Below are positions 27,493-51,331 of a stretch of DNA of 64,000 nt, piece by piece (position 1 is the stretch's first letter; each line of letters begins with the position of its first letter). The position numbers were made by a program, and so were the translations under genes. The stretch is taken from contig JADJOZ010000033.1 in assembly GCA_016713525.1 (NCBI GenBank), positions 255,007 to 319,006 on the forward strand, in the 5' to 3' direction. The notes below the pieces were generated by a model. The model was not told the DNA's origin. It saw only the letters and a list, made by a program, of their open reading frames with translations, and did no database searches. Source of the stretch: Bacteroidota bacterium (GTDB taxonomy: Bacteria; Bacteroidota; Bacteroidia; AKYH767-A; OLB10).

Positions 27493-28645
27493 ATGAATCA
27501 GCCATCATTCGATACATGGACATCTGTATTTTTATTTGCTTCCGTACAGGGACTCTTTGTTTCCATTGTTCTTTTTATAACAGGCAAAGAAAACAAAGTT
27601 GCTAACAGATTATTGGCGTCTTTGATTTTTTTATTTTCGGTTACCTTATTTGAATATGTACTTTATTGGACCAGATACCTTTATTATTGGCCTCATTTTT
27701 TGCAACTGACTGAAAATTTCCCATTGCTTTTTGGGGTAATACTCTTTTTTTATTTTAAATGCGTTTTTGGAACTCAAGCATTTGTGAAAAAAGATTGGTG
27801 GCATTTATTGCCATTCGTACTCTTTACTGTTTATCAGTTCCCTATTCTTTTTTCTTCATCTGAAGTTAAACAGGCCTGGATGGAAGGAAAGCAGGCATTT
27901 CCCTCATTGTTTATGTGGCCCGAACCCATGCGTGGATGGAATTGGCTGGCATGGCCGCGAATTGCACACATGATATTTTATTACTGTTTGATATGGTTCA
28001 CTTTTAAATCGCACAGCACTTCCAATCCGGAAGTAAGAACCTGGTTTAAATGGTTAACCGGATTGTTTTTGGCATTCATAATAAGCTACACCTCATATTT
28101 TGTACTGGTAAGATTTCCATTTTTTAGTGTTGAATGGGATTACATGATTTCTTTCTCTATGATGTTTACTATTTTTTTTCATTGCCTGGTTTGGATATTT
28201 GCAGCCTAAAGTATTCAGTGGTTTTAGTCTTGTTGAATCGGTTCAACTGCCTGTTAAATATAAAACTTCTGCATTATCGCCTGATGTAAGTAATGAGATT
28301 GTTAGTTTACTTGATTCTGCAATGATGGAGAAAAAGTTGTATCAGGATCCGGAAATCAGACTCGAGAAACTAGCTGATGCCATTGGCACTACACGACATT
28401 ATTTGTCACAGGTGATCAACGATCGCAAAGGCATGAGCTTTTTTGAATATATAAACGCACTTCGCATTGAAGAAGCTAAATCACTTTTGGCCAATCCACA
28501 AAAGCATAAAGTGAATGTGATAGAAATTGCCTATCAGGTAGGGTTCAATAATAAAGTAACTTTCAACAGCACTTTTAAAAAGTCTACGGGACTCACACCA
28601 ACGGAATTCCGAAAACAGAATGCTTCACCGGTTTTGAAAGATTAA
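27493..28645 (+). pseudogene. Membrane-anchored AraC-family transcriptional regulator, split into ORFs 27493..28209 and 28199..28645 at the T8 run 28172-28179
   Basis: The N-terminal part has about 6-7 hydrophobic helices. The C-terminal part has the AraC HTH ('LADAIGTTRHYLSQVINDRKGMSFFEYINALRIEEAKSLL..IAYQVGFNNKVTFNSTFKKSTGLTPTEFRK'). The second frame is open from 28163. Removing one T gives '..TIFFIAWFGYLQPKVFSGF..'. Confidence 0.75.
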
Positions 28646-28727: not shown

Positions 28728-30470
28728 TTGAAGAAAAAACTCATGAAAACATTCTTTCAACTCGTACTAATCTTGTTAGCACCTGGCGAACTGTTATTTG
28801 CGCAAGGCGGATTCACCAAAATTATTGATGCAGCCAATCCTGTAACCACATTCACAACCGCTGGTATTTATAAAGGTGCCGCCTGGGTCGATTTCGACAA
28901 TGACCACGACATAGACCTTTATGCAGCTCCAAACAGATTATTCCGGAATGATGGAAATGGAGTATTTATACAGCTGATAGACCTTCCTTTTTCACCTATT
29001 CAGAATCCGGGTGGTGCCAGCTGGGCCGATCTCGATCAGGATGGTGATCTCGATTGTATCGTTGCTCAGGATCCTTCCGGGGTTTATTTGAATGATGGAA
29101 CCGGCACATTCACCGATGTATCATCTCAGATCCCTGGGCTAAACAACTTTCCTTCCTGGGGGTGCGCTATAGGTAATATGAACAATGATGCCCATCCCGA
29201 TTTTATTTTCGCTCACGCTGCAGGATTTCATACTACCGGACCTTTTCCATCAAAACTTTACCTGAATTCAACTAATACTGTTAATCCCGTTATGTTGTCG
29301 GGTTATACGCTCACCGATTCTGTTAAACCCTACACGGTGCCATATTGGAGCGATTATGATCTCGATGGTGATATGGATTTATTTGTCGCCAGTGGTCCCG
29401 GTGGTGGTCCCGGCCCCGATTTTTGTTACCGGAACATGAAAGTGGAAACCGGTTTTGATTCACTGATATTGATGACCACTGAATTGTTTGCTTCTCAGTT
29501 ACAGGATGGACAATGTTATAATTTTATCGATTATGATCATGATAACGATTTGGATCTTTGCCTTACAAATTACGCAGGTGCCCAAACACGGTTTTATAGT
29601 AACGATGGAGGTATATACGTTGAAAAAGTATTTCCTTTTACAACAACAAATCCAAATCTTACCAATGCATGGGGCGATTATGATAATGATGGTGATCTGG
29701 ATGTTCTTATTTCATCCGATAATGTTCCTGTAAAGTTATATCTGAATAACGGCAACACCACATTTGCAAATGCTATTCAGCTAAGTGTTACCGGTACCTG
29801 TGGAATTGCTAATGGAGATTATGATAATGATGGTGATCTTGATTTATTCATGCATGGAAACGGAGCAGCACGAGCTCTTTTTCGAAATGATAATATAAAT
29901 ACAAATAATTGGGTGATGTTCAAGTGTGAAGGTATTGCATCAGGAACTTCAGCTTTAGGTACTATAGTACGTCTTAAGGCAACTGTTAATGGAATTTCCT
30001 ATTGGCAGATACGGGAATTATCGGCACAAAATAGTTTTCAAAGTCAGCATGATATGCGCTTGCATTTTGGATTAGGTGATGCAACTATTATCGATTCACT
30101 TGAAATCAGATATCCATCAGGCGCTACTACCCTAATAGCCGGAATTGCAGTTAATACAATTTATTGTCATAGTGAAGGTTCACCAACTCTTTGTCTGTTG
30201 AGTGATTTGTTTGAATCCACTGATCCACTGAAAGATTTGAATTTATATCCCAATCCGGCCGATTCATTTGTTAAAATAGAAACTGTTTCGAATCAATATT
30301 ATGATTCCTGGGAAGTTGTTGATATCAATGGGAAGGTATGGATGCAGTATTTTGGTAAAACTAATTTTGCTGCCCCAATTAATGTTAGCATCATTCCCGG
30401 AGGAACCTACCTTGTAAGGGCTTTTGCCGGTAATAAAGTCACTACGTTAAAACTGATTAAAAACAGGTAA
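28728..30470 (+). CDS. CRTAC1-family protein: FG-GAP/VCBS repeats, ASPIC/UnbV domain and T9SS tail
   Basis: 580 aa; the start may instead be the ATG at 28743. The FG-GAP repeats include 'VDFDNDHDIDLY', 'ADLDQDGDLDCIV', 'SDYDLDGDMDLFV', 'GDYDNDGDLDVLI' and 'GDYDNDGDLDLFM'. The UnbV-like part is 'IVRLKATVNGISYWQIRELSAQNSFQSQHDMRLHFGLGDATIIDSLEIRYPSG'. The tail is 'LNLYPNPADSFVKIE..GTYLVRAFAGNKVTTLKLIKNR'. Confidence 0.8.
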   Translation: MKKKLMKTFFQLVLILLAPGELLFAQGGFTKIIDAANPVTTFTTAGIYKGAAWVDFDNDHDIDLYAAPNRLFRNDGNGVFIQLIDLPFSPIQNPGGASWADLDQDGDLDCIVAQDPSGVYLNDGTGTFTDVSSQIPGLNNFPSWGCAIGNMNNDAHPDFIFAHAAGFHTTGPFPSKLYLNSTNTVNPVMLSGYTLTDSVKPYTVPYWSDYDLDGDMDLFVASGPGGGPGPDFCYRNMKVETGFDSLILMTTELFASQLQDGQCYNFIDYDHDNDLDLCLTNYAGAQTRFYSNDGGIYVEKVFPFTTTNPNLTNAWGDYDNDGDLDVLISSDNVPVKLYLNNGNTTFANAIQLSVTGTCGIANGDYDNDGDLDLFMHGNGAARALFRNDNINTNNWVMFKCEGIASGTSALGTIVRLKATVNGISYWQIRELSAQNSFQSQHDMRLHFGLGDATIIDSLEIRYPSGATTLIAGIAVNTIYCHSEGSPTLCLLSDLFESTDPLKDLNLYPNPADSFVKIETVSNQYYDSWEVVDINGKVWMQYFGKTNFAAPINVSIIPGGTYLVRAFAGNKVTTLKLIKNR

Positions 30471-34144: not shown

Positions 34145-35212
34145 TTGATATCTAAGATATTCTTTCCGGCATTAATTTATCTGATTTGCTCTTGCATGCC
34201 TGTGTTTTTGATTGCTCAGGACACGATTTCGAAAAATCGAATCGGTATTTTACCAGTACCATCGTTCGGTTATTCTCCTGAAACAGGAACCTATTTTGGC
34301 GCTGTAGCACTTTTTACTTTTCAAAAAAATTCCGATTCAATTTCACGGGCAGGAAATGCTAAAGTTGAGTTTGTTTATACACTAAAAAAACAAATTATCC
34401 TGGAAACAGAATGGAATATGCCTTTTGATTCTGGCAACTATTTTACCAAAGGATTAATCCATTTTTCCAAATACCCCGATCGCTATTTTGCAAATGAGAA
34501 AGGTGGATCCGATTTCAAAGGATATTATTTTTTGAGTGAAAGAATATCAGCGGAAGCATCTATGCTTAAACGGGTCAGAAAGGAATTTTATGGCGGACTT
34601 AGCTTTAAATTTGTTGACTATTCAGTATTGAGGGATTCTTTCCCGCTAAATATCGGAATTCCTGATGCAAATGCAACTGTTATCGGTGGAGGTCCTACCG
34701 TATTTTTTGATTCAAGAGACCATTTACTAACTCCATCAAAAGGATGGTATATATGGGTTAATGGAGGTTTTTATTCATCGAAAAATGATTATTTTAAACT
34801 GACTTTGGATTTCAGAAAGTATTTTTCAGGTAAGCTGGGTAATACTTTCTCCTTTCGCCTGCTACAGGAATTTAATACATCAAAATCGCCATTTTTTGAT
34901 TTGCCAAGGATTGGTGGAGATGAAATTACCCGTGGCATTTACAGTGGCCGCTTTTTTAATGATCATTCCGCCATCCTGCAAATGGAATACAGATTTAAAG
35001 TATACAGGCGCTGGGGTGTTTCTGTTTTCGGAGGAGGATCAACAGTTTATAATCGCTATTCGGCACTGAACAACCTGGAATTATTTAGTAATGCAGGGTC
35101 TGGCCTAAGGTTTATGATTGATAGAAAAGGGAAAACAAATTTGCGCCTTGATTATGCTATCGGATCTTATGGGAGCTCCGGATTTTATGTGGCATTCGGT
35201 GAATCCTTTTAA
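34145..35212 (+). CDS. Omp85/BamA-family outer-membrane beta-barrel protein (surface antigen D15-like, no POTRA region evident)
   Basis: 355 aa with an uncertain start (TTG at 34145). The C-terminal barrel signature is 'GGDEITRGIYSGRFFNDHSAILQMEYRF..GSGLRFMIDRKGKTNLRLDYAIG..GFYVAFGESF', ending in Phe. Confidence 0.6.
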   Translation: MISKIFFPALIYLICSCMPVFLIAQDTISKNRIGILPVPSFGYSPETGTYFGAVALFTFQKNSDSISRAGNAKVEFVYTLKKQIILETEWNMPFDSGNYFTKGLIHFSKYPDRYFANEKGGSDFKGYYFLSERISAEASMLKRVRKEFYGGLSFKFVDYSVLRDSFPLNIGIPDANATVIGGGPTVFFDSRDHLLTPSKGWYIWVNGGFYSSKNDYFKLTLDFRKYFSGKLGNTFSFRLLQEFNTSKSPFFDLPRIGGDEITRGIYSGRFFNDHSAILQMEYRFKVYRRWGVSVFGGGSTVYNRYSALNNLELFSNAGSGLRFMIDRKGKTNLRLDYAIGSYGSSGFYVAFGESF

Positions 35213-35264: not shown

Positions 35265-38200
35265 TTACTTAATTTTTAAAACACGTTGTGTAAATGGTAC
35301 TCCATCTATATGGAATATCACCATATAAGCTCCTGGGGCATCTCCTGTAAATTTAAATGTATGTTTTCCGGTCGCAAGTTTTAAATCTCTGGCAAATTCT
35401 TTCACCACACGACCTAACACATCATTTATTTGTAATGAAATCTCTCTTTCACCATTCAATTCAAATTCAATTGTTACATCATCTTTAAAAGGATTTGGTA
35501 ATAATGTAAGAGATGACATTCCTTCGGGCAAATCAATTCCAACCGGCAAAATGACTATGGTGTCGGTTAAGTTGACCACACAGGAGCCTGATGTTACGGT
35601 TAATGTAACAGGATATGATCCTGCTGCAGTGTAAATATGGGTTGGATTTATTAATGTTGACAAGAACCCATCACCAAAATTCCATAAATAAGTTGCGGCG
35701 GTTTGTGTTGCTGCAGTAAATTGCAAGGTTTGCCCGATTTGTTGCAGTCCACTCACTGTGAACGCTGCACTTACCACAGAAACCGTAACTGAAATGGATG
35801 TGCTGTCACTTCCAAATGCATTTGTTGCAACTAATGAAACCTGATATACGCCACTTGAAGCGTATTGATGAGTAGGATTTTGAAGAACCGAGGTTTGACC
35901 ATCTCCAAAATACCATAACCAGGTAGTAGGTAAATTATTCGACCCATCTGTAAAGCTCACAATACCATTGCAATTGTCTATTGAATCAATGGCAGCAAGT
36001 GCAACCGGAGGCAGACTGTTACTGATTACGGTTACAGTATAATCTTCAAATTGTCCGTTTACCAGATTTATACATGGGGAAGGAATCGAATTGACCGATC
36101 TGTCTGACCCGATGCGCATTCGCAACGGAGTATTTAACACAGCAGTTAACGGTATAGTAATGTTTCCATTGTGAGTGCCAATTGCCTGTGAAGCAAAAAC
36201 ATTTTCTGCAGCAGCAAATACACCATCATTGTTGAAATCAATCCAGCATCTCACATTTTCATTGGAAGTAGCACCGGTGGTAACAGCAATAGGATAACTT
36301 AATCCTTGTGTCACAATAGTTGCAGCTGTACATGAATAATCCTGGAAGCCTTGTATGGCATTCTGTGTTGTATTATTTATTGTATTAAATGTAACATTTG
36401 TTATTCCAGCACTACAACAGAAAGCAGAAGTAATAGGACTACATAATGGTGCTGAAGGGCCATTCACTCCAATTATAGTTACCGAAATTGTAATGGAATC
36501 ACATCCTGAAACATTACATGCTATCAGTTTCACCGGATAGGTTCCGGCAGAAATATAAGTGTGAACCGGATTTTCCAAAGTGGAAGTGCCGCCATCACCA
36601 AAATCCCACAACCAAGAGGTAGCTCCATTAACGGTTTCATCGGTGAAATTTACTATCCCAGAACAATTACCTATGCTTGCATAATCAAAATCAGCACAAG
36701 GGTTTGCATTTATACTCATGGAAATATAAACGGAATCTATTGGATTTAAAGGATCATTGCTATTGATTACCAGATATGAATTATAAGACCCCGCAGCTAA
36801 TTGTCCCGAACTTAATGTTACATAAATGAGTGTTGAGTCACCTGGAGTTAATGTATCTGATAAACTACTCAATTGTATCCAGGGTGATAAAGAATTTGAA
36901 TTACCATTTTGTATGATATTCGCAATAATACGTTGTGTAAATGCATTGAATGCGAAGTAATCGAAGCCCAGAAATACTCCTCTTCCGGCTCCTGTATTCC
37001 TGTAGCTGATTACATCATTATTGTTATAGGTTGCTAATGTAACTTTATCAGGATTTGTGAATGAATGATAGAAGGTTGCATTTGGGATAGGAATGCTTAA
37101 AGGAATATTGTCCATGTAGGCATGTGTGGTATCAGTTATAGTTAACGTTCCGGTGTTTACATTGGTAAGGAAGCTACCGGTAAACATACCCATATCATAG
37201 ATTCTGTTGGTACTACCTCCGCCAACTGATCCCAATACCACAACCACTCCTCCTGCATTCATGTAGTTCTGAACTACAGGACCGAATGATGTATAGTGAG
37301 TGCTGGTACCTGTTTCCTGTTCAGGCATCAGCAATAAATCAATGCCATTGAGGAGTCCTGTTAATACACTGGCATCTGTGGTGTTTGATGTTGTAAGGGT
37401 GTACTTGGTGAAATAGGCATTGATAGCTGCAATTGTATTTGGATACTCACCGGTCATGTCAACGCCCTGGGTTAATGCCAACACCCTTACTGTGTCAGTT
37501 AAGTTGTACCCACTGGCATTGAAAATTAAGTCAGGTCCTCCGGTATTGTAAATCCACAATGGAATTGTAACGGAATCAGAGCAGGCGTCCAGATTTACAA
37601 TTATAGAATCCGGAACGGTTAGAATCTGTGGCGCAAGAGTGCTTGTGCCGGTCAGACAAATTACAGTATCAACATCATTGCTCTGTACAGTAAGGAAGCT
37701 GTTGAATGTTCCTGCTGTTTGAGGATTAAATGTTACTGCGACCGATTGTGTAGCACCAGGTGCAATCGAAAGGGTGGTGGGATTCACACTGTAAGCATTG
37801 TTGGCAGGAGTGATTGATGTAATTTGTAATGTGTCGCACCCATTGTTGCCAAATGTTATGTTTTGAGATGCTGATAAATATTGCCCCACCTGACCAAAAT
37901 GTAAGCACGAATCGGAAACTGTCATCAATGGATCGCCTGCCACATTTAATGTAATCGAAATGATCAAAGGTGAATGTGCTGTATCATTTGAGTTAATTAA
38001 TATTTGGCTGGTATATAAACCTGCTGTAAGTCCGGAACTGTTAAATGTCAGATAAACAACAACGGAATCACCCGGTGCAATGGTATCCGACGATGAGGTT
38101 GTTTGCACCCACGGTGGTAAAGCATTAATTCTGCTATTCTCAACAATATTTGCAATAATTCGTTGCGTTTGAGCACTGCTTGCAAAGTAATCGAATCCTA

Positions 38201-41200
38201 AAAACACTGCTCTGCCTGTTCCGATATTGCGATATGATAATACATCGCCTGTGTTATGGATAATCAGGGTTTCTTTATCAGGATTGGTGAAATTATGGTA
38301 GAGTGTAGCGTTTACAGCAGCAACTGTAGGTGGAATATTTTCCATGTATTCATGCGTAGTATCAGTTACCGTCATAATACCTGTATTTGCATTGGTCATG
38401 TAGTTTCCAGTAAACATTCCCATTGTATATACACGATCCTGGCTTCCGGCCCCGACCGACCCCAGCACCAAAGCAACACCACCATTGTTCATGAAGTTTT
38501 GTATGGCTGGTGTGAATAAAGGATATTGGGTGATTGTACCTGATTCCTGTTCTGGAAATAGAACCAGATCCTTACCGGCGAGGAGTGAACTAAAGACTGC
38601 TGAATCGGTGGTGGAGGAAGTTGTCAGATTATATTTGGTGAAATAATTATTTATTGCAGTTATGGTGTTCGGATATTCGGTAGTTAAGTCCACACCATGT
38701 GTCATCGACAATACATTCACAGAATCAGTAAATGAACCACCTGTTGTATTGTAAACCAGGTCACCAGTCCCGGTGTTATAAATAGTATAAGGAATAGTAA
38801 CAGAATCATTACAATTCAATGAAACGCCAAATGAAACGGGATTAACTTCAATATTTGGCATTGCCTGAACAGTGATGTTTTGTGTTAATGTATCAGTAGA
38901 AACGCAATTGGTAACAATCAGTGTTACAGGAAAAACTCCTGAAGCAAAATAAGCATGAGATGGATTTTGTTGTGCAGAAGTTGCGCCATCACCAAAATCC
39001 CAAAGCCATGATTCAGGAGCATTGGTTGAAGCATCTGTAAATGGTACCGGAATAGCGAATGGTGGATTAAAAGAAGGTACACTCCAGTTAGCAACTGTCG
39101 GAATCTGACTACCTATAACCGAAGTCCATGTGGCATAGTAACCGGCAAAAGTTGTGGAACTGTTCGATGTCCATCTAATGAGCATCTTACCGGATGTAGC
39201 AGTAACATTTGCAGGGATGTTTGATCCGGAAGCAGTAAGTATAATGGGATCGGTCAGTTGATCGCCATCATGAACATATAGAATATCACTTCCTTGCGTT
39301 ACAAATTGCAGAAATGAAAGTGTAATACTTGTTGCACATGGTGGGGCAATGATCAGGGAACAATTTTCATTATTCTGATATCCTCCCAGTGGTCCACCTG
39401 AATCGTACAGTTCACCTGTTTGCGAAGATATTGTGGTGGTAGCACCACACATATTTACTGCAGTAACAACTTCAATATATGCAGTTTTAGTAATGGAATT
39501 ATTACCAAATCCGTTCGAAGCAGTTAGTGTTACAGGGTAAATTCCCGGAACGTTATATACTATTGATGGGTTTTGGTCTGTTGATGTAGTTGTAACTGCA
39601 CCTGTGAATGTCCACGACCAGGCTGTGGGAGCATTAATGGTGAGATCGGTAAAGTTTACTGTAGCGCCAACCGGAACCGAAACCTGATCGGCGATAAAAT
39701 CGGCAATTGGAGGTAAAGTATTTGCAATAAAAGTAATGGTATAATCTTCAGCTTGTCCATTGGCAGGATCATAACATGCTGAAATAATCGTATTTGCAGC
39801 AACATCATCAATGACACGCATGCGTAGTGGTGTGTTCAGGACGGCCGTTAGTGGAGTCTGCACAACACCTGTATGATTTCCGGTTTTATTATCTGAAATA
39901 AATACCAGTTCATCGGTATTATTAAAGCTTCCATCATTATTGTAATCAATCCACATTCTTACATCTTCAAGTACACCGGTACCTGTTGTTACAGATACCA
40001 GAACCGGGTCGCCCGCAGTTACTGTTGTAGCTGTTCCACATGTAAAATCTTTATACCCTTCACTGGCATCAACCGTTGTATTGTTGATGGTATTAAAGTT
40101 CACGTTCGTTATGCCGGCATTACAGCAATAAGACAAAGTTACCGGAGAACAGGAAGCTGAAACCGGACCCCCGCCATTTGTTATTGTGATGTAATTTGTT
40201 TTGGTCACAGTATCTGAAGTTCCACACAATCCGGTACCATAGGTAATCAGTTCCACTGTGTAAGTTCCTGCAGCAGTGTATGTATGACCGGGTGATGTTT
40301 GTGTTGATGTGTTACCATCACCAAAATCCCAGCTATAAGTGCAGCGATTCGTGGATTGATTTATGAAATTTACAGTTCCGGGCACTGTACAAACAAAATT
40401 GATGTTCGAACTAAACTGTGCTACCACCGCATTACTGAACAGACCGCCAACACCAGCTGCATACCAGGCATTAGTTACCTGAATTTCTTCATCAGAACAG
40501 CTACCGAATAAATCAATAGCCGATTGAATAGCATAAAATCTGGCATCTGCATAAGTTGCATTTGGAGTTAGGTACACGGTTAGATTCCGATAACTGATTT
40601 CGCTTGCATGGTCCATGCCAATAGGAACAATAGAATATGTATCGCCATTATCGTTTGTTCCCGATCCGCCCTGACAAAGTAAATAGTAATAGTAATTCAT
40701 AACTCCACTGTTGGTATGAACTGCTCCTGCAGAACTCCAGAAATTACCCAAATAGGTATCAGGGTGACTATACTGATTCGGATTCGACATATTCCGGAAT
40801 GGAATGCCACTTATATTTACCTGATCTCCTTCAAGAAAATTTGCTGTTGTTGGATTTTTAAAGAAATCGATTGATACTCCGAAACAATCACTGAATGACT
40901 CATTCAATGCTCCCGATTCATTGGCATAAACAAGTGCTGCAGAAAATTGCGTAACTGCATGCGTGATTTCATGACCTACAATATCAAGTGATGTAAGTGG
41001 AGTAAAATCTACCCCATCACCATCACCATAAGTCATGTAATTTCCATTCCAGAAAGCATTCACATAATTATTTGAATAATGAACATAAGAAACCATTTGT
41101 GCTCCTGCATTGTCATAGGAATTTCTTCCAAAATTAGTCAGGTAAAATTCATGAGTGGCTTCAGTACCAAAGTGTGCATCGTATGCATATTTATCGATAC

Positions 41201-42071
41201 CGGTTGAATTCCACAAGTTATCAGTGTCAGTAAATTCAACTGCGGTTGCATAGTTCGTTCCATTGTTCAGATTTAATGTCCTCACACCTCCAAAACCAAT
41301 ATCCGCTTTAAGTCTGTAACTACCCGGAGAAATACTATCGGTTGTCATGGTACGGATACCATTGTAAGCTGTAACTGCAGTAGCCGGTACATCGGTAGCG
41401 CAAATACGACTGATTTCATCAAGCGTTTCCCCTGTTTGTGCATCTATATAAATGTAAACTCTTTTTAATGGAATTTCACTGTAGATATCAAATTTGTAAG
41501 CTAATCTGTTTCGTTGTGCTTTTTGATAAATTACCAGTTCGCCTTTTTCTTTAGCACCTTCAAGTCCATTGTCAACGTGGTCATTATATTTTTCTGATGG
41601 AACAGCAGCAAGTGCTTTAGCAAATGCAGCGTCTGTAGACAGTGTTGGAGATGTTTGTGTCATGATATTTATATACCATTCCCCATTTGCAGAAGTAACA
41701 TATCCGTTTTTAATATGTACATAGTAAACTCCGTGTTCTACTCTTATACCATTATAAAATTGTTGGTATCGATAATGCGTATAGCCATGCAAATCACGTT
41801 CTGTTTTTTCAAGCCGCAATTCTTCTGCTTGTGTTAGTTGCAATAATTCATCACGCAACCAGTTCATGTGAGTTGCTTCTGAAATTTGCTGCGAATTTCC
41901 GGGTTTAAAATAATCAACGCTCTTCCTTTCTTCACTGATTTTTAATAATGAAGCTCCTTTTACAATTGCTGATGCTTCTGCATCTCTGTAAATCTGAGAC
42001 ATCCCTGTAAAGGGTATCAGAAAAGTAATTGCAAGAAAGAAAAAGGTTTTTAAAATGAATTTTGTTTTCAT
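35265..42071 (-). CDS. Giant T9SS cargo: M4 (thermolysin-like) zinc metalloprotease with propeptide, followed by 6 PKD, 2 GEVED, 1 CUB-like and several Ig/ASH-like domains, two copies of an unassigned ~200-aa module, and a T9SS tail
   Basis: 2268 aa. It has a signal peptide and an FTP/PepSY-like propeptide. The catalytic motif 'VGHEITHAV' places HEITH at 40959-40973, followed by 'GALNESFSD'. The PKD motif 'WDFGDG' occurs repeatedly. The GEVED ends are 'GQAEDYTITF' and 'GQFEDYTVTV'. The CUB-like part is 'CGATTTISSQTGELYDSGGPLGGYQNNENCSLII'. The tail is 'LTLLPNPFKDDVTIEF..GAYMVIFHIDGVPFTQRVLKIK'. Confidence 0.85.
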   Translation of the reverse strand: MKTKFILKTFFFLAITFLIPFTGMSQIYRDAEASAIVKGASLLKISEERKSVDYFKPGNSQQISEATHMNWLRDELLQLTQAEELRLEKTERDLHGYTHYRYQQFYNGIRVEHGVYYVHIKNGYVTSANGEWYINIMTQTSPTLSTDAAFAKALAAVPSEKYNDHVDNGLEGAKEKGELVIYQKAQRNRLAYKFDIYSEIPLKRVYIYIDAQTGETLDEISRICATDVPATAVTAYNGIRTMTTDSISPGSYRLKADIGFGGVRTLNLNNGTNYATAVEFTDTDNLWNSTGIDKYAYDAHFGTEATHEFYLTNFGRNSYDNAGAQMVSYVHYSNNYVNAFWNGNYMTYGDGDGVDFTPLTSLDIVGHEITHAVTQFSAALVYANESGALNESFSDCFGVSIDFFKNPTTANFLEGDQVNISGIPFRNMSNPNQYSHPDTYLGNFWSSAGAVHTNSGVMNYYYYLLCQGGSGTNDNGDTYSIVPIGMDHASEISYRNLTVYLTPNATYADARFYAIQSAIDLFGSCSDEEIQVTNAWYAAGVGGLFSNAVVAQFSSNINFVCTVPGTVNFINQSTNRCTYSWDFGDGNTSTQTSPGHTYTAAGTYTVELITYGTGLCGTSDTVTKTNYITITNGGGPVSASCSPVTLSYCCNAGITNVNFNTINNTTVDASEGYKDFTCGTATTVTAGDPVLVSVTTGTGVLEDVRMWIDYNNDGSFNNTDELVFISDNKTGNHTGVVQTPLTAVLNTPLRMRVIDDVAANTIISACYDPANGQAEDYTITFIANTLPPIADFIADQVSVPVGATVNFTDLTINAPTAWSWTFTGAVTTTSTDQNPSIVYNVPGIYPVTLTASNGFGNNSITKTAYIEVVTAVNMCGATTTISSQTGELYDSGGPLGGYQNNENCSLIIAPPCATSITLSFLQFVTQGSDILYVHDGDQLTDPIILTASGSNIPANVTATSGKMLIRWTSNSSTTFAGYYATWTSVIGSQIPTVANWSVPSFNPPFAIPVPFTDASTNAPESWLWDFGDGATSAQQNPSHAYFASGVFPVTLIVTNCVSTDTLTQNITVQAMPNIEVNPVSFGVSLNCNDSVTIPYTIYNTGTGDLVYNTTGGSFTDSVNVLSMTHGVDLTTEYPNTITAINNYFTKYNLTTSSTTDSAVFSSLLAGKDLVLFPEQESGTITQYPLFTPAIQNFMNNGGVALVLGSVGAGSQDRVYTMGMFTGNYMTNANTGIMTVTDTTHEYMENIPPTVAAVNATLYHNFTNPDKETLIIHNTGDVLSYRNIGTGRAVFLGFDYFASSAQTQRIIANIVENSRINALPPWVQTTSSSDTIAPGDSVVVYLTFNSSGLTAGLYTSQILINSNDTAHSPLIISITLNVAGDPLMTVSDSCLHFGQVGQYLSASQNITFGNNGCDTLQITSITPANNAYSVNPTTLSIAPGATQSVAVTFNPQTAGTFNSFLTVQSNDVDTVICLTGTSTLAPQILTVPDSIIVNLDACSDSVTIPLWIYNTGGPDLIFNASGYNLTDTVRVLALTQGVDMTGEYPNTIAAINAYFTKYTLTTSNTTDASVLTGLLNGIDLLLMPEQETGTSTHYTSFGPVVQNYMNAGGVVVVLGSVGGGSTNRIYDMGMFTGSFLTNVNTGTLTITDTTHAYMDNIPLSIPIPNATFYHSFTNPDKVTLATYNNNDVISYRNTGAGRGVFLGFDYFAFNAFTQRIIANIIQNGNSNSLSPWIQLSSLSDTLTPGDSTLIYVTLSSGQLAAGSYNSYLVINSNDPLNPIDSVYISMSINANPCADFDYASIGNCSGIVNFTDETVNGATSWLWDFGDGGTSTLENPVHTYISAGTYPVKLIACNVSGCDSITISVTIIGVNGPSAPLCSPITSAFCCSAGITNVTFNTINNTTQNAIQGFQDYSCTAATIVTQGLSYPIAVTTGATSNENVRCWIDFNNDGVFAAAENVFASQAIGTHNGNITIPLTAVLNTPLRMRIGSDRSVNSIPSPCINLVNGQFEDYTVTVISNSLPPVALAAIDSIDNCNGIVSFTDGSNNLPTTWLWYFGDGQTSVLQNPTHQYASSGVYQVSLVATNAFGSDSTSISVTVSVVSAAFTVSGLQQIGQTLQFTAATQTAATYLWNFGDGFLSTLINPTHIYTAAGSYPVTLTVTSGSCVVNLTDTIVILPVGIDLPEGMSSLTLLPNPFKDDVTIEFELNGEREISLQINDVLGRVVKEFARDLKLATGKHTFKFTGDAPGAYMVIFHIDGVPFTQRVLKIK
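36705..37634 (-). repeat. Intragenic repeat unit 2 (aa ~1480-1789 of the M4 mosaic protein)
   Basis: See unit 1. The core module is aa 1526-1722 (36906-37496), matching aa 1116-1312 (38136-38726). Confidence 0.8.
37938..38858 (-). repeat. Intragenic repeat unit 1 (aa ~1072-1378 of the M4 mosaic protein)
   Basis: It aligns by eye with aa ~1480-1789 at a constant 410-aa offset ('VTIPYTIYNTG' vs 'VTIPLWIYNTG'; 'GRAVFLGFDYFASSAQTQRIIANIVEN' vs 'GRGVFLGFDYFAFNAFTQRIIANIIQN'). The matching nucleotide stretches are about 1230 bp apart. Confidence 0.8.
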
Positions 42072-42446: not shown

Positions 42447-44645
42447 ATGCTTATGTATAATAAAGAATTTAAAAAAAATATTTTGCAATTGACAGTTTTA
42501 ATTGCTGCTTTATTGTTGATTAGCTCAGAAATTGTTAAGAGCCAGGCACGACAAATCGGATCATTTAGTTCAGATAGTTATGGTGGACTTTCAACTTCTG
42601 TTCAGGCTGGAAACATTATTTTTTTCAGTGCAAATACACAAACATACGGACGTGAACTTTGGCGTACTGATGGTACCGAAGCAGGAACTTTCATGGTTGC
42701 TGATATTAACCCCGGATTAGGTGGAAGTATAATTGGATATTTTGAATATACCTCTCATGTAATGAATGGTATTATTTATTTTCGTGCCGATGATGGTGTT
42801 AATGGAATAGAGTTGTGGCGAAGTGATGGTACTGCTTTGGGAACTTATATGGTATTAGATATTGTTCCCGGTTCGGGCAGTGGTGCTCCCGGTGGATTTA
42901 CTCACACTAATAACATGCTTTTTTTTACTGCCGGCACAGGAAGCTCTTTGTGGCGTAGTGATGGCACTACCGCTGGCACGTTTTCTATTGGTTCTTTCCA
43001 AATAGTTTCTAATCTAACCGGCTTCAATGGTAATGTTTATTTCTCTGCCGATATTAATAACAGTGGTCAGGAGTTATGGAAGAGTAACGGTACTGTTGCA
43101 GGAACACAATTATTAAAGGATCTCAATGGTGTATTTGGTGCTTCCTTACCATGTAATTTTCATGTTACACCAAATATACTTTATTTTATGGCTAACACAA
43201 ATGATGGATGGGAATTGTGGAAAACAACCGGAAGTAATGCATCTACCGTGCAGGTGAAAGATATTAATCCCGGAAATGCAGGAGGTGTTTTGTCGGTTTA
43301 TAGTGTAGCTAATGCCGGCAATATAGGTAATACACTTTATTTTAGTGCTAATGATGGAGTAACGGGATATCAGCTTTGGAAATCTGATGGCACTGATGCC
43401 GGTACCGTTCGAATTTCTAATTTGGCAAATGGGGTTGACCAGAATGGTGCATTTCCAGTTGTTAATGGTAAGGTATTGGTAAATAATTATGCCAGTGAAT
43501 TCTTCTGGCAGTATGATCCGGTAACTGATATCTTTGATGAGTCTGCCTATCCTTCCCGAATTTGGTTTAATAGCTATGAAGGGAAATACATTTTTTCAGG
43601 TAACGAAATGTATTATACAGATAAAGATAGTGTTTTTGGTTGTGAAATATATTATGCTGATGGGAATACTGGCACATCCCCATTCTTTCTGGAATCGCAT
43701 TTAACCGATAATTGGTTTTTCAGCTCTACGCAAGGTTTTAATACCATATGTGGAATTTCAGGAACAAACCTTATTTTTTCTCAGGCTCGTTCTCCCTACA
43801 ATGCAGTTATACCACTTTTTTCAATAGACCTTTCTGCTTCTTCCAGTTGTTCATATCCTTCCGTGGTTTTTCCAGTACCTTTATCATTTACGAGTGCTCA
43901 CTTTGTATGGAGTTATATTCCTGATGCATCACAGTATGAGTTGCAGTATCGTTTGCAGGGAAACCCTTCCTGGAACTCAGAAATAACCGCACAAACTTAT
44001 GTCGCCTTAAATAACTTAACAGATTCAGCTAATTATGAATATCGGATCAGGGCTTACTGTAATGGTGCGTGGACAGCGTTTTCTGATATTAAAAATTATA
44101 ACTCCGGACAAACTGTAAATGATTATATCTTGCATATATTAGCTAATAAATCAGAAAATGATTCTACTCACAGAATATACTGGCTCAAAACCCCTCAAAT
44201 AACCAACATGCAAATAAGATACCGTGTTGCGGGTACTACAACATGGCAGACTGTTAGCAATTCTAATGGGTATCGACGACTAACAGGATTAATACCTGAC
44301 ACATTTTATGAGTATCAATGGCGTGCTAACTGGGGTGGTACCTGGGATCAGTGGTTTCCTTCAACGTTGTATTTTTATACGAAAAATGAAACTCTTACCG
44401 GTGTTGCCGACATAATTCCTGACAACATGGTGCCATTGATTTATCCGAATCCAGTATCAAATAATTTGCAAGGTAATTTTCCTGATGAAACGGAGTACTA
44501 CATCACCGATATCTCAGGTAGAATTTGTCAACAGGGTTTCTTTAATAACAATAATGTAAATGTAACATCGCTCGAATCCGGATTATATATACTTATTGTA
44601 CATGGTGGCATCTCCAACAGCTCAATTAAGTTTGTGAAAAAGTGA
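42447..44645 (+). CDS. ELWxxDGT-repeat protein with Fn3-like domains and T9SS tail
   Basis: 732 aa. The repeats include 'ELWRTDGTEAGT', 'ELWRSDGTALGT', 'LWRSDGTTAGT', 'ELWKSNGTVAGT', 'ELWKTTGSNAST' and 'QLWKSDGTDAGT'. The tail is 'PLIYPNPVSNNL..GLYILIVHGGISNSSIKFVKK'. Confidence 0.85.
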   Translation: MLMYNKEFKKNILQLTVLIAALLLISSEIVKSQARQIGSFSSDSYGGLSTSVQAGNIIFFSANTQTYGRELWRTDGTEAGTFMVADINPGLGGSIIGYFEYTSHVMNGIIYFRADDGVNGIELWRSDGTALGTYMVLDIVPGSGSGAPGGFTHTNNMLFFTAGTGSSLWRSDGTTAGTFSIGSFQIVSNLTGFNGNVYFSADINNSGQELWKSNGTVAGTQLLKDLNGVFGASLPCNFHVTPNILYFMANTNDGWELWKTTGSNASTVQVKDINPGNAGGVLSVYSVANAGNIGNTLYFSANDGVTGYQLWKSDGTDAGTVRISNLANGVDQNGAFPVVNGKVLVNNYASEFFWQYDPVTDIFDESAYPSRIWFNSYEGKYIFSGNEMYYTDKDSVFGCEIYYADGNTGTSPFFLESHLTDNWFFSSTQGFNTICGISGTNLIFSQARSPYNAVIPLFSIDLSASSSCSYPSVVFPVPLSFTSAHFVWSYIPDASQYELQYRLQGNPSWNSEITAQTYVALNNLTDSANYEYRIRAYCNGAWTAFSDIKNYNSGQTVNDYILHILANKSENDSTHRIYWLKTPQITNMQIRYRVAGTTTWQTVSNSNGYRRLTGLIPDTFYEYQWRANWGGTWDQWFPSTLYFYTKNETLTGVADIIPDNMVPLIYPNPVSNNLQGNFPDETEYYITDISGRICQQGFFNNNNVNVTSLESGLYILIVHGGISNSSIKFVKK

Positions 44646-47451: not shown

Positions 47452-49314
47452 ATGAAAACTTTCTCTTTATTAATTTCAATTTTGTTAATAATTCAATTAG
47501 CAAACGCCCAAATTCCTTTCCAAAAAAGTTTTGGAGGAACAAATACAAATAGTGGCAACTCAGTTCAACAAACAAACGATAACGGATACGTTGCAGTTGG
47601 ATATACAGCAGCTTTTGGTGCAGGTGCCTTTGATGTTTTTATTATTAAAACAGACTCATCAGGTAATCCTGTTTGGAAAATAGCGATTGGTGAAACATCG
47701 AGCGATTTTGCAAATGACGTTCAACAGACAAGCGATAGCGGATTTGTTGTATGCGGATATTCCAATTCTTCTTTCAGCGGAGGTTTTGCAGGTGAAAATA
47801 TTTATCTGATAAAGTTAAATTATAACGGAAGCATTTTATGGTCTAAAATTATTGGTGGAGCAGGGAACGAAAGAGCCAACTCAGTTAGGCAAACATCGGA
47901 TGGCGGTTTTTTAATTGCAGGAACAACTGATAGTTGGGGAGCCGGAGGTAATGATTTTTATCTCGTTAAAACCGATGCAAGTGGTAATGTTAGTTGGACA
48001 AAAACATTTGGAGGGGCATTTGATGATGTGGCAAATTCAGTGAAACAAACTTCTGATGGCGGTTACATTGTTGCGGGTGAAACAAACAGTTTTGGTGCGG
48101 GAGATATAGATTTCTACCTTATTAAAACTGATGCATTTGGTACTCTTACCTGGTCAAAATCATTTGGAGGAGGAGGCGGTGATTGGCTGTATTCCGTGGT
48201 TCAGGCATCGGATAATGGTTATGTTATGGGCGGTTATTCAATTAGTTTTTTAGGTGCTGGTGAAGCTGATGCGGTTGTAATTAAAACGGATAGTTTAGGA
48301 AATATTCTTTGGAGCAAAACATATGGCGAACAATATGGAGACGTTGCTTCATCAGTTGTGCGAACAAATGATAATGGTTATGCTTTATGCGGTGGCCAAT
48401 CAACTTTTCCTGTTTCAATGGTTGACAAAGGGCTTCTTTTCAAGATTGACAGCTTGGGTAATTTCATGTGGGCAAATACTTTTATAAATAGTAATGATGT
48501 TCAAAGGAGCGTTTGTAAAACAAGTGATGGAGGTTATATTTTAACTGGTGATAGATTTCCCGTTTCAGGAATTGACTTAGTCATAATCAAGACAAATGCA
48601 AATGGAACAGGTGGATGCAATGAACAATCTACAACTTTAACATCAACAAATATTTTTCCGCAAGTTTCAATTCCAGCAACGTTAAGTTCAAGTGGAGGAA
48701 CGGCATTAACCGTAACTTCTATATCAAGCAGTGGAGGAATCGTTTCAAACCCATGCAGTTGCTCATCTTATTTTACGCTATTTCCTGATGCAATTCCTCA
48801 TAATTGGATTGCAGTAAATCAGGCAACTGGTCAACCACCTATTACTTATAGTTGGAGCTGGGGTGATGGTTCAGCTAGTTCTTCGGGTCCAACACCCTCT
48901 CACACGTACAGTACAGCAGGATACTATAACATTTGTCTTTCCATTACGGATATTGCAGGATGTACAAGCACATACTGCGATTCTTCAACATATTTGTTCA
49001 AAAGCAACGGAACGATGGTTAATATGAATGTAATATTGCCTACAGGTATTAATATTATAGAACCTGAAAAAAATACAATTTCTTTTTCCCCAAATCCGAC
49101 ATCAGGAATATTTGTAATCAACTTTCCTGAAAATTTCCAAAAAGGTAAGATTGAAATTCATAATGTATTGGGGGAACTAGTTTATGTTGATAGGATGGAT
49201 GAAATAAACAAAAAAGAAATAAATCTAAAAAATATTAACTCGGGGGTTTATTTTGTGAAAGTGTTTGACGGAGAAAGGAGTTACTGCAAGAAACTAATTG
49301 TGGAACAAGATTGA
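47452..49314 (+). CDS. T9SS cargo with seven ~50-aa propeller-like repeats, a PKD domain and a T9SS tail
   Basis: 620 aa with signal peptide MKTFSLLISILLIIQLANAQ. The seven repeats are of type 'NSV(Q/K)QTSDGGY(I/V)xxGxTxSFGAGxxDxxLIKTDxxGxxxWxKxxGG'. The PKD segment is 'WSWGDGSASSSGPTPSHTYSTAGYYNICLSITD'. The tail is 'ISFSPNPTSGIFVINF..GVYFVKVFDGERSYCKKLIVEQD'. Confidence 0.85.
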   Translation: MKTFSLLISILLIIQLANAQIPFQKSFGGTNTNSGNSVQQTNDNGYVAVGYTAAFGAGAFDVFIIKTDSSGNPVWKIAIGETSSDFANDVQQTSDSGFVVCGYSNSSFSGGFAGENIYLIKLNYNGSILWSKIIGGAGNERANSVRQTSDGGFLIAGTTDSWGAGGNDFYLVKTDASGNVSWTKTFGGAFDDVANSVKQTSDGGYIVAGETNSFGAGDIDFYLIKTDAFGTLTWSKSFGGGGGDWLYSVVQASDNGYVMGGYSISFLGAGEADAVVIKTDSLGNILWSKTYGEQYGDVASSVVRTNDNGYALCGGQSTFPVSMVDKGLLFKIDSLGNFMWANTFINSNDVQRSVCKTSDGGYILTGDRFPVSGIDLVIIKTNANGTGGCNEQSTTLTSTNIFPQVSIPATLSSSGGTALTVTSISSSGGIVSNPCSCSSYFTLFPDAIPHNWIAVNQATGQPPITYSWSWGDGSASSSGPTPSHTYSTAGYYNICLSITDIAGCTSTYCDSSTYLFKSNGTMVNMNVILPTGINIIEPEKNTISFSPNPTSGIFVINFPENFQKGKIEIHNVLGELVYVDRMDEINKKEINLKNINSGVYFVKVFDGERSYCKKLIVEQD

Positions 49315-49621: not shown

Positions 49622-51331
49622 ATGAAAAAACCACAAATCAGAAGAAAGCAAGCCCAATCCGTTTTCCAGACCATTTACCTTCTTGCCTTAGCGATAGTTG
49701 TGTTAAATACAACTAGTTTTGCTCAGGCTCCTGTCTGGAACTGGGCCAAAGCTGGTTCTGGTGCCTTCGCCGACAATTCAAGCAGAACCGTTACCGATAA
49801 CAGCGGAAACGTATATGTAGTCGGTTCCTTTGCGAGCACAACCATTACTTTTGGTGCTATAACACTCACGAATGCAAGTGGCGGCATCGCCGATCTCTTC
49901 ATTGTAAAATATGACCCCAATGGGAATGTGATATGGGCAAAAAGTGCCGGAGGGGCATCTACTGATTACGCATCTGCTATTGCGATTGACAACAACAATA
50001 ATGTTTGTATTGCCGGATCTTTTTCATCAGCTTCTCTCGCATTCGGACCGATATCCATCACCAACAATACAAGTGGGTCCAGTGATATTTTTCTGGCCAA
50101 ATTTGATTCACTCGGGAATATCATCTGGGCAAAAAGAGCAGGTGGAACTATCTCCGACTTTTGCAATGGGATAGCGATAGTTGGGAATGGTAATATTTTA
50201 ATTACAGGATCATTCGCATCATCTCTTATTTCATTTGGTTCAACTGTTTTAACAAATCAGGGTTCAACGGATCTTTTCGTTGCAAAATACGACCAAAACG
50301 GTAATGTTATGTGGGCAAAGAGCCATGGTGGCAGCGATTGGGATATTGGTCTGAGCATTAAATCAGATGTTTCCGGCAACGTTTTTGTCACCGGTTATTT
50401 CAAAAGCAGCGCAATAAATTTTGGTTCCATTTCCTTAACAAACTCATCAGGTAGTAGTTTTTCAGATCTGTTCTTAGTTAAATACGACAGTAATGGAAAT
50501 GTGCTATGGGCTCAAAATCCACAAGGCCTATTTAATAAATCAGGAAATGATCTTGCAACAGATGTTAACGGCAATGTATATATCACCGGATATTACCAGG
50601 GTCCAACGCTCGATTTCGGTACAATTACAGTTACCAATAATTCCCCTTCATACAGCGATTCGTTTACGGCAAAATATGACAACAATGGTAATGTTATATG
50701 GGCCAACTCCACAGGTGGTGCATTTTATGATGTTGGCAATGGAGTTTCAGTGAATGCCAATGGAGATGTATTTGTTGTCGGTTATTTTGAAGCCCCGTCA
50801 ATTTCATTTGGCAGTAACACACTTGTCAACTCAGGGAGCAGCGACATATTTATTCTAAAATTTGCTAGCAACGGAACCCCTCAGTGGGGAATCAGCACAG
50901 GCGGGCCATCCCAGGATTGGGGCAATCATCTGGCAATCAGCAATACAGGAGAAATTTATTTGACAGGAATATTCCAAAGCCCCACCGTTACTTTTGGATC
51001 CACCACGTTGACTAACGCCGGTGCCTCCTTTGATGTCTGGATTGCTAAACTCAGCGAGCTTACCGGAATTCATGAACACAGCCAATTGGCTACTTTTCTT
51101 CTTTCTCCGAATCCGGCAAGTAATCAATTCAGCATAAACTTAAATGGAAGTTTTGAAAATGCAGAAGTTCAAATTACAGATGTTACCGGAAAAGAAGTTT
51201 TTCGTAACACTTTTTATGAAAACGAACAGCTCATTCTAAACACTGCAGAACTTGCTGATGGTCTGTACACGGTTAATATCACAACACGAGAATTTACCGG
51301 GAGTAGCAAATTGATAGTTCAAAAAAAATAA
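49622..51331 (+). CDS. SBBP (beta-propeller) repeat protein with T9SS tail
   Basis: 569 aa. The seven repeats are of type 'GNVYVxGxFxSxxIxFGxxxLTNxxxxDxFxxKYDxNGNVxWAKxxGG'. The tail is 'FLLSPNPASNQFSINL..GLYTVNITTREFTGSSKLIVQKK'. Confidence 0.85.
   Translation: MKKPQIRRKQAQSVFQTIYLLALAIVVLNTTSFAQAPVWNWAKAGSGAFADNSSRTVTDNSGNVYVVGSFASTTITFGAITLTNASGGIADLFIVKYDPNGNVIWAKSAGGASTDYASAIAIDNNNNVCIAGSFSSASLAFGPISITNNTSGSSDIFLAKFDSLGNIIWAKRAGGTISDFCNGIAIVGNGNILITGSFASSLISFGSTVLTNQGSTDLFVAKYDQNGNVMWAKSHGGSDWDIGLSIKSDVSGNVFVTGYFKSSAINFGSISLTNSSGSSFSDLFLVKYDSNGNVLWAQNPQGLFNKSGNDLATDVNGNVYITGYYQGPTLDFGTITVTNNSPSYSDSFTAKYDNNGNVIWANSTGGAFYDVGNGVSVNANGDVFVVGYFEAPSISFGSNTLVNSGSSDIFILKFASNGTPQWGISTGGPSQDWGNHLAISNTGEIYLTGIFQSPTVTFGSTTLTNAGASFDVWIAKLSELTGIHEHSQLATFLLSPNPASNQFSINLNGSFENAEVQITDVTGKEVFRNTFYENEQLILNTAELADGLYTVNITTREFTGSSKLIVQKK

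Follow-up and report, generated by a model that had tools for sequence, protein, structure and literature searches.

Among proteins with the class I glutamine amidotransferase (GATase)-like fold, the usual ligand site is the C-terminal edge of the sheet. In the thuEFGKAB trehalose-utilization system, the gene for the stand-alone protein ThuA has genes for a ThuB-type oxidoreductase and a sugar ABC transporter as neighbors. The N-terminal alpha/beta/alpha domain of Agd3 from Aspergillus fumigatus, the founding member of carbohydrate-binding module 87 (CBM87), has 4JQS and 3RHT as its nearest structures, and its role in binding a matrix polymer has been shown experimentally (PMC7229062). In this study, we describe a module that is predicted to share this fold and that occurs twice within an M4 metalloprotease encoded on contig JADJOZ010000033.1 of a Bacteroidota bacterium (assembly GCA_016713525.1, forward strand, positions 255,007 to 319,006). 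The whole 64,000-nucleotide (nt) stretch that was analyzed is referred to here as the window; the protease gene is a 2268-amino acid (aa) open reading frame (ORF) with an ATG start, at 35265–42071 on its minus strand.

An original prediction, made from the sequence by eye, had drawn attention to this ORF, and the ORF coordinates, M4 motifs, domain counts, repeat-unit coordinates and motif string that it reported all hold under translation, Pfam and alignment. By its predicted structure and sequence matches, the module is an unnamed, divergent offshoot within the class-I-GATase-like (flavodoxin-like) superfamily, with ThuA as its nearest neighbor, and each copy forms an autonomous ~205-aa alpha/beta domain with a ThuA-like fold. 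With regard to function, we see an even chance that it is a non-catalytic ligand-binding module, tethering the protease or the cell to a matrix polymer; this proposal is made by analogy, because CBM87 of Agd3, which has the same fold, performs that role.

Results

A duplicated domain with a ThuA-like fold

The two repeated units, at 37938–38858 and 36705–37634, are 60% identical over 293 aa with one gap (E = 5e-110), and their 211-aa cores are 64% identical, in line with the 55–65% first estimated by eye. Corresponding motifs are offset by exactly 410 aa (HGVD/QGVD at aa 1125/1535 and GGVxxVLGS at aa 1197/1607), and a hidden Markov model (HMM) of the module family finds no further copy in the other ORFs of the window. 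Pfam ThuA (PF06283) scores 56.2 bits against the whole protein, and the scores of copy 1 and copy 2 alone (Table 1) lie on either side of the gathering cut-off of 33.4 bits. As far as fold and superfamily are concerned, then, the module is already known, and Pfam ThuA brushes it; the earlier statement that it could not be placed in any family was too strong, as an ordinary Pfam scan places it, marginally, in ThuA.

An AlphaFold (AF2) model of copy 2 was built from a 58-row family alignment (56 diverse instances plus the two window copies, most rows being 21–45% identical to copy 2). The model has a mean predicted local distance difference test (pLDDT) score of 95.1 and a predicted template modeling (pTM) score of 0.91, and its elements run in the order b1-a1-b2-a2-b3-a3-b4-a4, followed by a beta-rich half. 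Foldseek recovers 82 PDB matches at E ≤ 1e-3, with ThuA-like proteins and GATase subunits leading: the top matches are the ThuA-like 4PXY and 4JQS (Bacteroides uniformis) and 1T0B, with E-values of 6e-9 to 7e-8 and template modeling (TM) scores of 0.63–0.66, and next come the GATase subunits 2A9V, 1QDL and 8HX9, STM3548, and the GATase-like domains of glycoside hydrolase (GH) family GH164 and GH5 mannosidases. At fold level, model and matches describe a three-layer alpha/beta/alpha domain of the class-I-GATase-like superfamily, built on a mainly parallel central sheet; together with the Pfam ThuA matches, they bear out the original guess of a flavodoxin-like or class-I-GATase-like fold of ThuA type. 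As to the DUF4159 type that had also been suggested, no DUF4159 match occurs at E ≤ 0.01 among the 58 family members scanned. ThuA matches 14 of these members (E ≤ 0.01), DUF7408 nine, Glyco_hydro_42M six, LBP_M five and ABC_transp_aux one; for none of the 58 is there a match to a Pfam or NCBIfam model dedicated to the module family, and the publications consulted on ThuA-like domains contain no account of this branch. A sequence search of the PDB with one copy alone returned a chance match only, and a literature search on ThuA/ThuB chemistry and DUF7408 gave nothing usable.

Insertion into an Ig-like domain

Single-sequence AlphaFold prediction of the 310-aa unit gave no usable model (pLDDT 34), and the surroundings of the module were therefore analyzed by excising it in silico. 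The ~40 residues before and ~60 residues after each core resemble the two halves of a DUF1573/HYDIN-type beta-sandwich. With the first module removed and aa 1069–1112 joined to aa 1319–1380, the resulting 106-aa chimera gives a single PF22544 match of 33.0 bits (cut-off 25.5) that runs colinearly over profile positions 18–98 of 100, as well as a DUF1573 match of 26.3 bits (cut-off 26.1). The chimera from the second unit is weaker, at 19.7 bits against PF22544 (E = 1.1e-3), which is below the cut-off. Across the family, an Ig HMM built from 201 intact immunoglobulin (Ig)-like domains neighboring modules matches 176 of 293 excised chimeras, and in 161 of the 293 there is a single match that spans the junction.

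These sequence matches show that a loop of a HYDIN/VesB/DUF1573-type Ig-like domain holds the module as an insertion. The repeat unit consists of Ig strands, the ThuA-like module, the remaining Ig strands and an intact Ig domain (~400–410 aa in total). This combination of a split Ig domain carrying the module with an intact Ig domain explains the ~400–410-aa period of the family, and nesting of the module in the split Ig domain explains why the unit originally recognized measured ~310 aa. The original prediction saw no Ig signature in the core; the ~310-aa unit as a whole includes an Ig-like domain, its first ~40 and last ~60 residues being halves of one such domain that the module interrupts. 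The second unit of the window protein has no trailing intact Ig domain, and PKD4 comes next.

A family of modules in giant extracellular proteins

An exhaustive HMMER search with a two-copy profile against 1.84 billion representative proteins recovered 550 representative clusters at E ≤ 1e-3, of which 124 reach E ≤ 1e-30. Among the best 150 representatives, proteins carry one to seven copies with a period of ~400 aa, and 42 resemble the window protein in their M4 head and in a domain order that is largely colinear; the closest M4-headed relative (P0019) is 46% identical over its full length. Other members have a gingipain-type C25 head (P0015, P0062) or a subtilisin-type S8 head (P0051, P0016, P0140), and further heads in the family include FG-GAP/ASPIC, Calx-beta/DUF11, DUF7948/SBBP and MAM. 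One recurrent architecture of ~1830 aa has no enzyme and comprises two CUB domains, three nested modules, PKD and a type IX secretion system (T9SS) tail (P0009, P0020), and near-minimal members consist of the module with a T9SS tail (P0112) or of a signal/transmembrane segment with the module (P0150). The original prediction had called for a search of other contexts, and these are what it yielded. Among the sources that carry a name are metagenome-assembled genomes (MAGs) of Bacteroidia, Salibacteraceae, Candidatus Sumerlaeia and Myxococcales. The ~400–410-aa unit is a mobile repeat in giant extracellular proteins, mostly of T9SS type, of Bacteroidota and some other phyla.

The window protein itself falls in a 25-member cluster (90% identity) from Bacteroidota MAGs, with annotations that read "PKD domain-containing protein," "M4 family metallopeptidase" and "Zn-dependent metalloprotease/plastocyanin." DNA of the gene is present in many wastewater, activated-sludge and bioreactor metagenomes. 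Short metatranscriptome contigs suggest that the gene is transcribed, with contaminating DNA as an alternative source. For two longer metatranscriptome contigs (2.3 and 5.1 kb, from two runs), the match is confined to stretches of 18–25 nt (window 36591–36615 and 40315–40332); their source may be a related gene that has short conserved words in common with the protease ORF. Word-indexed protein searches, with one copy or with a 58-sequence profile, recovered no family member (the profile gave two irrelevant matches) and missed the cluster of the window protein itself, which is in the collection searched. Negatives from such searches are unreliable for low-identity repeat proteins like this family.

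Duplication history and selection

Between copy 1 and copy 2, dN is 0.28 for the core and 0.54 for the split Ig domain, the copies agree at 39% of third codon positions, and dS is saturated or undefined. Because dS is saturated, the duplication is old on a neutral scale and the copy-to-copy dN/dS has no meaning; this ratio, which had been proposed as a check, was uninformative, and a comparison with an orthologue was used in its place. A scan of a genome collection with the two window copies returned one locus, an orthologue (L001) in a Bacteroidia MAG that is 90.3% identical and gap-free. Against this orthologue, dN/dS is 0.024 for the M4 catalytic domain, 0.033 for module 1 and 0.041 for module 2, compared with 0.052 and 0.083 for the split Ig halves, 0.072 for the T9SS tail, 0.102 for GEVED2 and 0.058 for the whole gene. 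The modules have lower values than the surrounding Ig, PKD, GEVED and C-terminal sorting domains, and purifying selection on both copies is strong, at a level similar to that on the M4 catalytic domain. The earlier view of an old duplication with both copies maintained thus stands, with saturated synonymous sites between the copies and a dN/dS of 0.03–0.04 for each.

The two window copies are each other's nearest relatives, at 64% identity compared with at most 48% to any instance in other sampled lineages; to judge from this disparity, the duplication arose, or was homogenized, within the lineage of the window protein and is not ancestral to the family. Elsewhere in the family, copies within one protein are 35% to 95% identical, and copy number is therefore evolutionarily dynamic. 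In P0002, a 2703-aa protein from a Salibacteraceae MAG with modules at aa 789–2222, three of the five copies are 88–95% identical, which indicates that the ~400-aa unit was amplified in tandem very recently in that lineage.

Such freedom in copy number, from one to seven with recent amplification in some proteins, would suit an inert spacer or decoration, a ligand-free element that only makes the stalk bulkier or stiffer, as would the location of the module within long arrays of generic beta-sandwich domains. However, specific polar residues are kept in a set of instances with a median identity of 34% to window copy 2, and the dN/dS of the modules lies below that of the domains around them. 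We consider an inert role very unlikely.

Conserved residues and possible function

Conservation was counted in a family alignment of 245 instances, in module numbering. Position 91, at the end of strand beta4, is by topology the GATase nucleophile elbow. It is occupied by Cys in 68% of instances, by Leu in 9%, including both window copies (Leu1203 and Leu1613), and by Thr in 7%; Ala also occurs. A cryptic Cys-His enzyme built on this Cys was considered and rejected: Cys91 has no association with the half-conserved His128 (52% versus 44%), the position is often Leu, Thr or Ala, and Leu occupies it in both window copies. In only 38 of the 245 instances does another Cys, at position 100, offer Cys91 a possible disulfide partner, and Cys91 is the sole Cys in 78. 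In the family at large, then, Cys91 looks like a buried relic and not a nucleophile. The elbow Cys with a His/Glu partner that marks catalytic GATases and families C26 and C56 is missing from the window protein; neither window core contains any Cys, and the two copies are therefore incapable of GATase, C26 or C56 chemistry.

What the family does conserve, besides glycines at 85, 86, 172 and 174, is a polar set composed of D16 (83%), E20 (81%), E62 (71%), E64 (72%), D182 (88%) and N196 (96%), together with the adjoining aromatics Y21 and Y183. All six signature residues occur together in 150 of the 245 instances and in both window copies (D1128, E1132, E1174, E1176, D1294 and N1308 in copy 1; D1538, E1542, E1584, E1586, D1704 and N1718 in copy 2). 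In the secondary structure of the model, D16/E20, E62/E64 and D182 directly follow strands beta1, beta3 and the last sheet strand, respectively, and N196 lies in the C-terminal helix.

Residues in such positions could also belong to an enzyme. A catalytic domain with non-cysteine chemistry would use the Asp/Glu cluster, perhaps with a metal, as a hydrolase, esterase or lyase site on matrix polymers, and the window protein would then be bifunctional. The acidic residues follow the sheet strands where active sites of the GATase fold sit (triad location: PMC7229062), the dN/dS of the module is near that of the M4 domain, and the module is the only non-beta-sandwich domain in some proteins. But neither window copy has a Cys and Cys and His are not co-conserved in the family, ~39% of instances have an incomplete signature (a large share for an active site), Pfam and NCBIfam give no enzyme-family match beyond fold level, and the two extracellular or periplasmic domains of this fold that a literature search turned up (CBM87 of Agd3, PelA) are described as non-catalytic. 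A catalytic role of this general kind is, in our view, unlikely. The more specific version, a new catalytic domain in which the active-site edge of the GATase fold has been re-used with an Asp/Glu (possibly metal-dependent) center in place of the Cys-His-Glu triad and acts on exopolysaccharide or another matrix polymer, seems distinctly unlikely; if true, the giant T9SS proteins would be bifunctional combinations of protease and matrix-modifying enzyme, and the enzyme-free architectures would be enzymes themselves.

Sequence comparison with solved structures raises another alternative. The best PDB match of the family profile is the GATase-like domain of the GH35 beta-1,2-glucosyltransferase 7VKX (E = 2e-6), with Glyco_hydro_42M-type domains and IFT52 ranking next. 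The modules might pair within or between molecules to form multimers or a surface lattice, much as the GATase-like domain builds the oligomer in GH42, GH35 and GH164 enzymes. The Pfam matches of six members to Glyco_hydro_42M and five to LBP_M among the 58 point the same way, as do the GH164 and GH5 enzymes among the fold matches, and two to seven copies at a regular period would permit zipper-like pairing. In the alignment with 7VKX, however, D182 pairs with Ala, N196 with Lys and position 91 with Tyr. Because the signature positions are not shared, the polar site is specific to the module family, and the conserved residues differ from those that such domains use. Single-copy and minimal proteins also exist, and the glycosidase domains pack on a TIM barrel, which the window protein lacks. 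We regard self-association as rather improbable.

For the ligand-binding role proposed above, the following mechanism can be envisaged. After T9SS export, the protein would form a long stalk of beta-sandwich domains, with the two ThuA-like modules projecting sideways from their host Ig domains. Each module would display, at the C-terminal edge of the sheet, an acidic and aromatic patch made up of D16, E20-Y21, E62, E64, D182-Y183 and N196. The ligand of this patch may be a matrix polymer of sludge or biofilm, with a glycan as the most plausible candidate; a bound cation could mediate the contact, and binding could keep the protease, or the cell, on its substrate or flocs. Several points weigh against this proposal. 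No sequence similarity to CBM87 was detected, and the conserved patch is mainly acidic, unlike the Trp-lined cleft of CBM87. The putative exposure and clustering of the signature residues are deduced from their secondary-structure positions. The best sequence-level PDB matches (the GATase-like domain of GH35 7VKX and the "trimerization" domains of GH42 type) point to self-association, and an enzyme, too, would be compatible with very low dN/dS and with the clustering of conserved polar residues along the canonical active-site edge.

Gene architecture and neighborhood

Features of the ORF are listed in Table 1. Pfam identifies FTP, Peptidase_M4 and Peptidase_M4_C, six PKD stretches, two GEVED domains, one CUB domain (match at aa 875–981), a HYDIN/VesB Ig domain and Por_Secre_tail. 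The protein has the features of an M4 peptidase: besides the catalytic domains and the FTP propeptide, the HEXXH motif is present as HEITH (aa 367–371, nt 40959–40973), and the downstream Glu ligand lies in a GxxNExxSD motif, GALNESFSD, which starts at aa 387. It also has those of T9SS cargo, with a C-terminal sorting domain by PF18962 and an N-terminal signal peptide by eye; TIGR04183 scores 21.7 bits on the tail, slightly under its cut-off of 23. A PKD-GEVED-PKD block is likewise doubled in the ORF (aa 555–869 and 1795–2100, at 39465–40409 and 35772–36689), as a second internal duplication beside that of the ThuA-like units.

Table 1. Features of the M4 protease ORF, with window coordinates
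Feature	Residues (aa)	Coordinates	Strand	Basis or description
Whole ORF	1–2268	35265..42071	-	Pre-pro M4 metalloprotease, long multidomain stalk, T9SS C-terminal sorting domain
Signal-peptide-like hydrophobic N-terminal segment	1–25	41997..42071	-	Judged by eye from translation
FTP/PepSY-type propeptide region	60–225	41397..41894	-	Pfam FTP 49.6 bits at aa 83–131; PepSY weak
M4 thermolysin-type catalytic unit	225–545	40437..41399	-	Peptidase_M4 128.3 bits, Peptidase_M4_C 132.1 bits (matches aa 232–541)
PKD1, GEVED1, PKD2, CUB-like, PKD3	555–627, 640–790, 794–869, 870–985, 1002–1071	38859..40409	-	Pfam and domain map
Split Ig-like domain a, N-terminal half	1072–1112	38736..38858	-	PF22544 and DUF1573 matches of excised chimera
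ThuA-like module copy 1	1113–1323	38103..38735	-	ThuA 32.6 bits; family HMM 246.8 bits
Split Ig-like domain a, C-terminal half	1319–1378	37938..38117	-	Excised chimera, family Ig HMM, domain map
Intact HYDIN/VesB/DUF1573-type Ig-like domain, between both units	1379–1471	37659..37937	-	PF22544 65.6 bits (aa 1381–1468); Ig HMM 104.4 bits
Split Ig-like domain b, N-terminal half	1481–1522	37506..37631	-	Chimera PF22544 19.7 bits; family Ig HMM 24.1 bits across junction
ThuA-like module copy 2	1523–1733	36873..37505	-	ThuA 34.4 bits; family HMM 256.6 bits; AF2 pLDDT 95.1; Foldseek
Split Ig-like domain b, C-terminal half	1729–1790	36702..36887	-	Excised chimera, family Ig HMM, domain map
PKD4, GEVED2, PKD5, PKD6	1795–1869, 1876–2024, 2025–2100, 2104–2175	35547..36689	-	Pfam and domain map
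T9SS C-terminal sorting domain	2185–2268	35268..35519	-	Por_Secre_tail PF18962 30.6 bits, cut-off 27, at aa 2192–2255

The surrounding region is dense in T9SS cargo genes. Five further T9SS-tailed ORFs lie near the gene (22896–27311, 28728–30470, 42447–44645, 47452–49314 and 49622–51331), with FG-GAP/PKD_6/DUF6851, FG-GAP/ASPIC, fn3, PKD and SBBP as their other domains. Two plus-strand ORFs, at 27493–28209 (238 aa) and 34145–35212 (355 aa), have no Pfam match at E ≤ 1e-5; the latter, which lies on the strand opposite to the protease gene, directly adjoins the 3' end of that gene.

Discussion

Wastewater and sediment communities are rich in giant T9SS-secreted proteins from uncultured Bacteroidota, and the annotation of these proteins goes no further than "PKD domain-containing protein." What is new here lies at the level of the domain family: the insertion in an Ig domain, the ~400-aa repeat unit, the link to three protease families and a family-specific acidic signature. 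The finding thus concerns a domain family and is not a new biological principle. As the module travels with three unrelated protease families, or with no enzyme, it is a candidate for recognition of the floc or biofilm matrix by such proteases and adhesins.

ThuA-like proteins (PF06283), represented by BACUNI_01602 (4JQS/4PXY) and 1T0B of Bacillus stearothermophilus, share the fold and are the best structural matches of the module, with a sequence identity of just 12–14%. The 1T0B, 4JQS and 4PXY chains are stand-alone proteins of ~240–245 aa, whereas the module belongs to an extracellular protein, where it occurs as a repeat within Ig domains and is joined to a protease and a T9SS tail. It differs likewise from ThuA of the thuEFGKAB type, being internal to a 2268-aa T9SS cargo protein; no thuB-like or sugar-transport gene neighbors the protease gene in the window, where the neighbors are pirin, a methyltransferase, T9SS cargo and genes of no assigned family.

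Catalytic class I GATases and families C26 and C56/DJ-1 also have this fold, and the family consensus keeps a Cys at the end of beta4. The window copies differ from them in the Leu at the elbow and the lack of Cys, and the family in its lack of Cys-His covariation; by topological alignment, the GFDY motif of the module would stand at the place of the GATase HPE. The nearest solved relatives by sequence profile are the GATase-like middle domains of glycosidases (Glyco_hydro_42M and LBP_M; GH35 7VKX, GH164 6T5O), which are non-catalytic and without the triad. These domains pack on a TIM-barrel catalytic domain and serve oligomer assembly, and they do not share the signature of the module; the window copies have no PF08532 match and the protein no glycosidase domain, with 6 of 58 relatives matching weakly.

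For the nested architecture, the closest parallel comes from a different superfamily. The integrin I (von Willebrand factor A, vWA) domain, a doubly wound alpha/beta domain with conserved acidic residues atop its sheet, sits within a loop of the beta-rich domain that hosts it in a cell-surface protein. It is an architectural analogy to the nested module, which has no metal-ion-dependent adhesion site (MIDAS) motif.

The best functional analogue is CBM87. Like the module, it has a GATase1/ThuA-like fold without the Cys-His-Glu triad and is carried on an extracellular enzyme, Agd3, that acts on a biofilm matrix polymer. What marks CBM87 is sequence kinship with Agd3 aa 141–364 together with binding of a GalNAc/GalN-rich polymer. 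A PDB profile search with the module family found no Agd3 chain at E ≤ 10, and the shared fold neighbor 4JQS is the documented tie between the two. CBM87 is a single terminal domain beside a CE18 deacetylase, neither nested nor repeated, and it has a Trp-lined cleft where the module has an Asp/Glu and Tyr patch. A binding role for the module, if true, would extend to bacteria what CBM87 represents as the sole characterized carbohydrate-binding module with a GATase fold.

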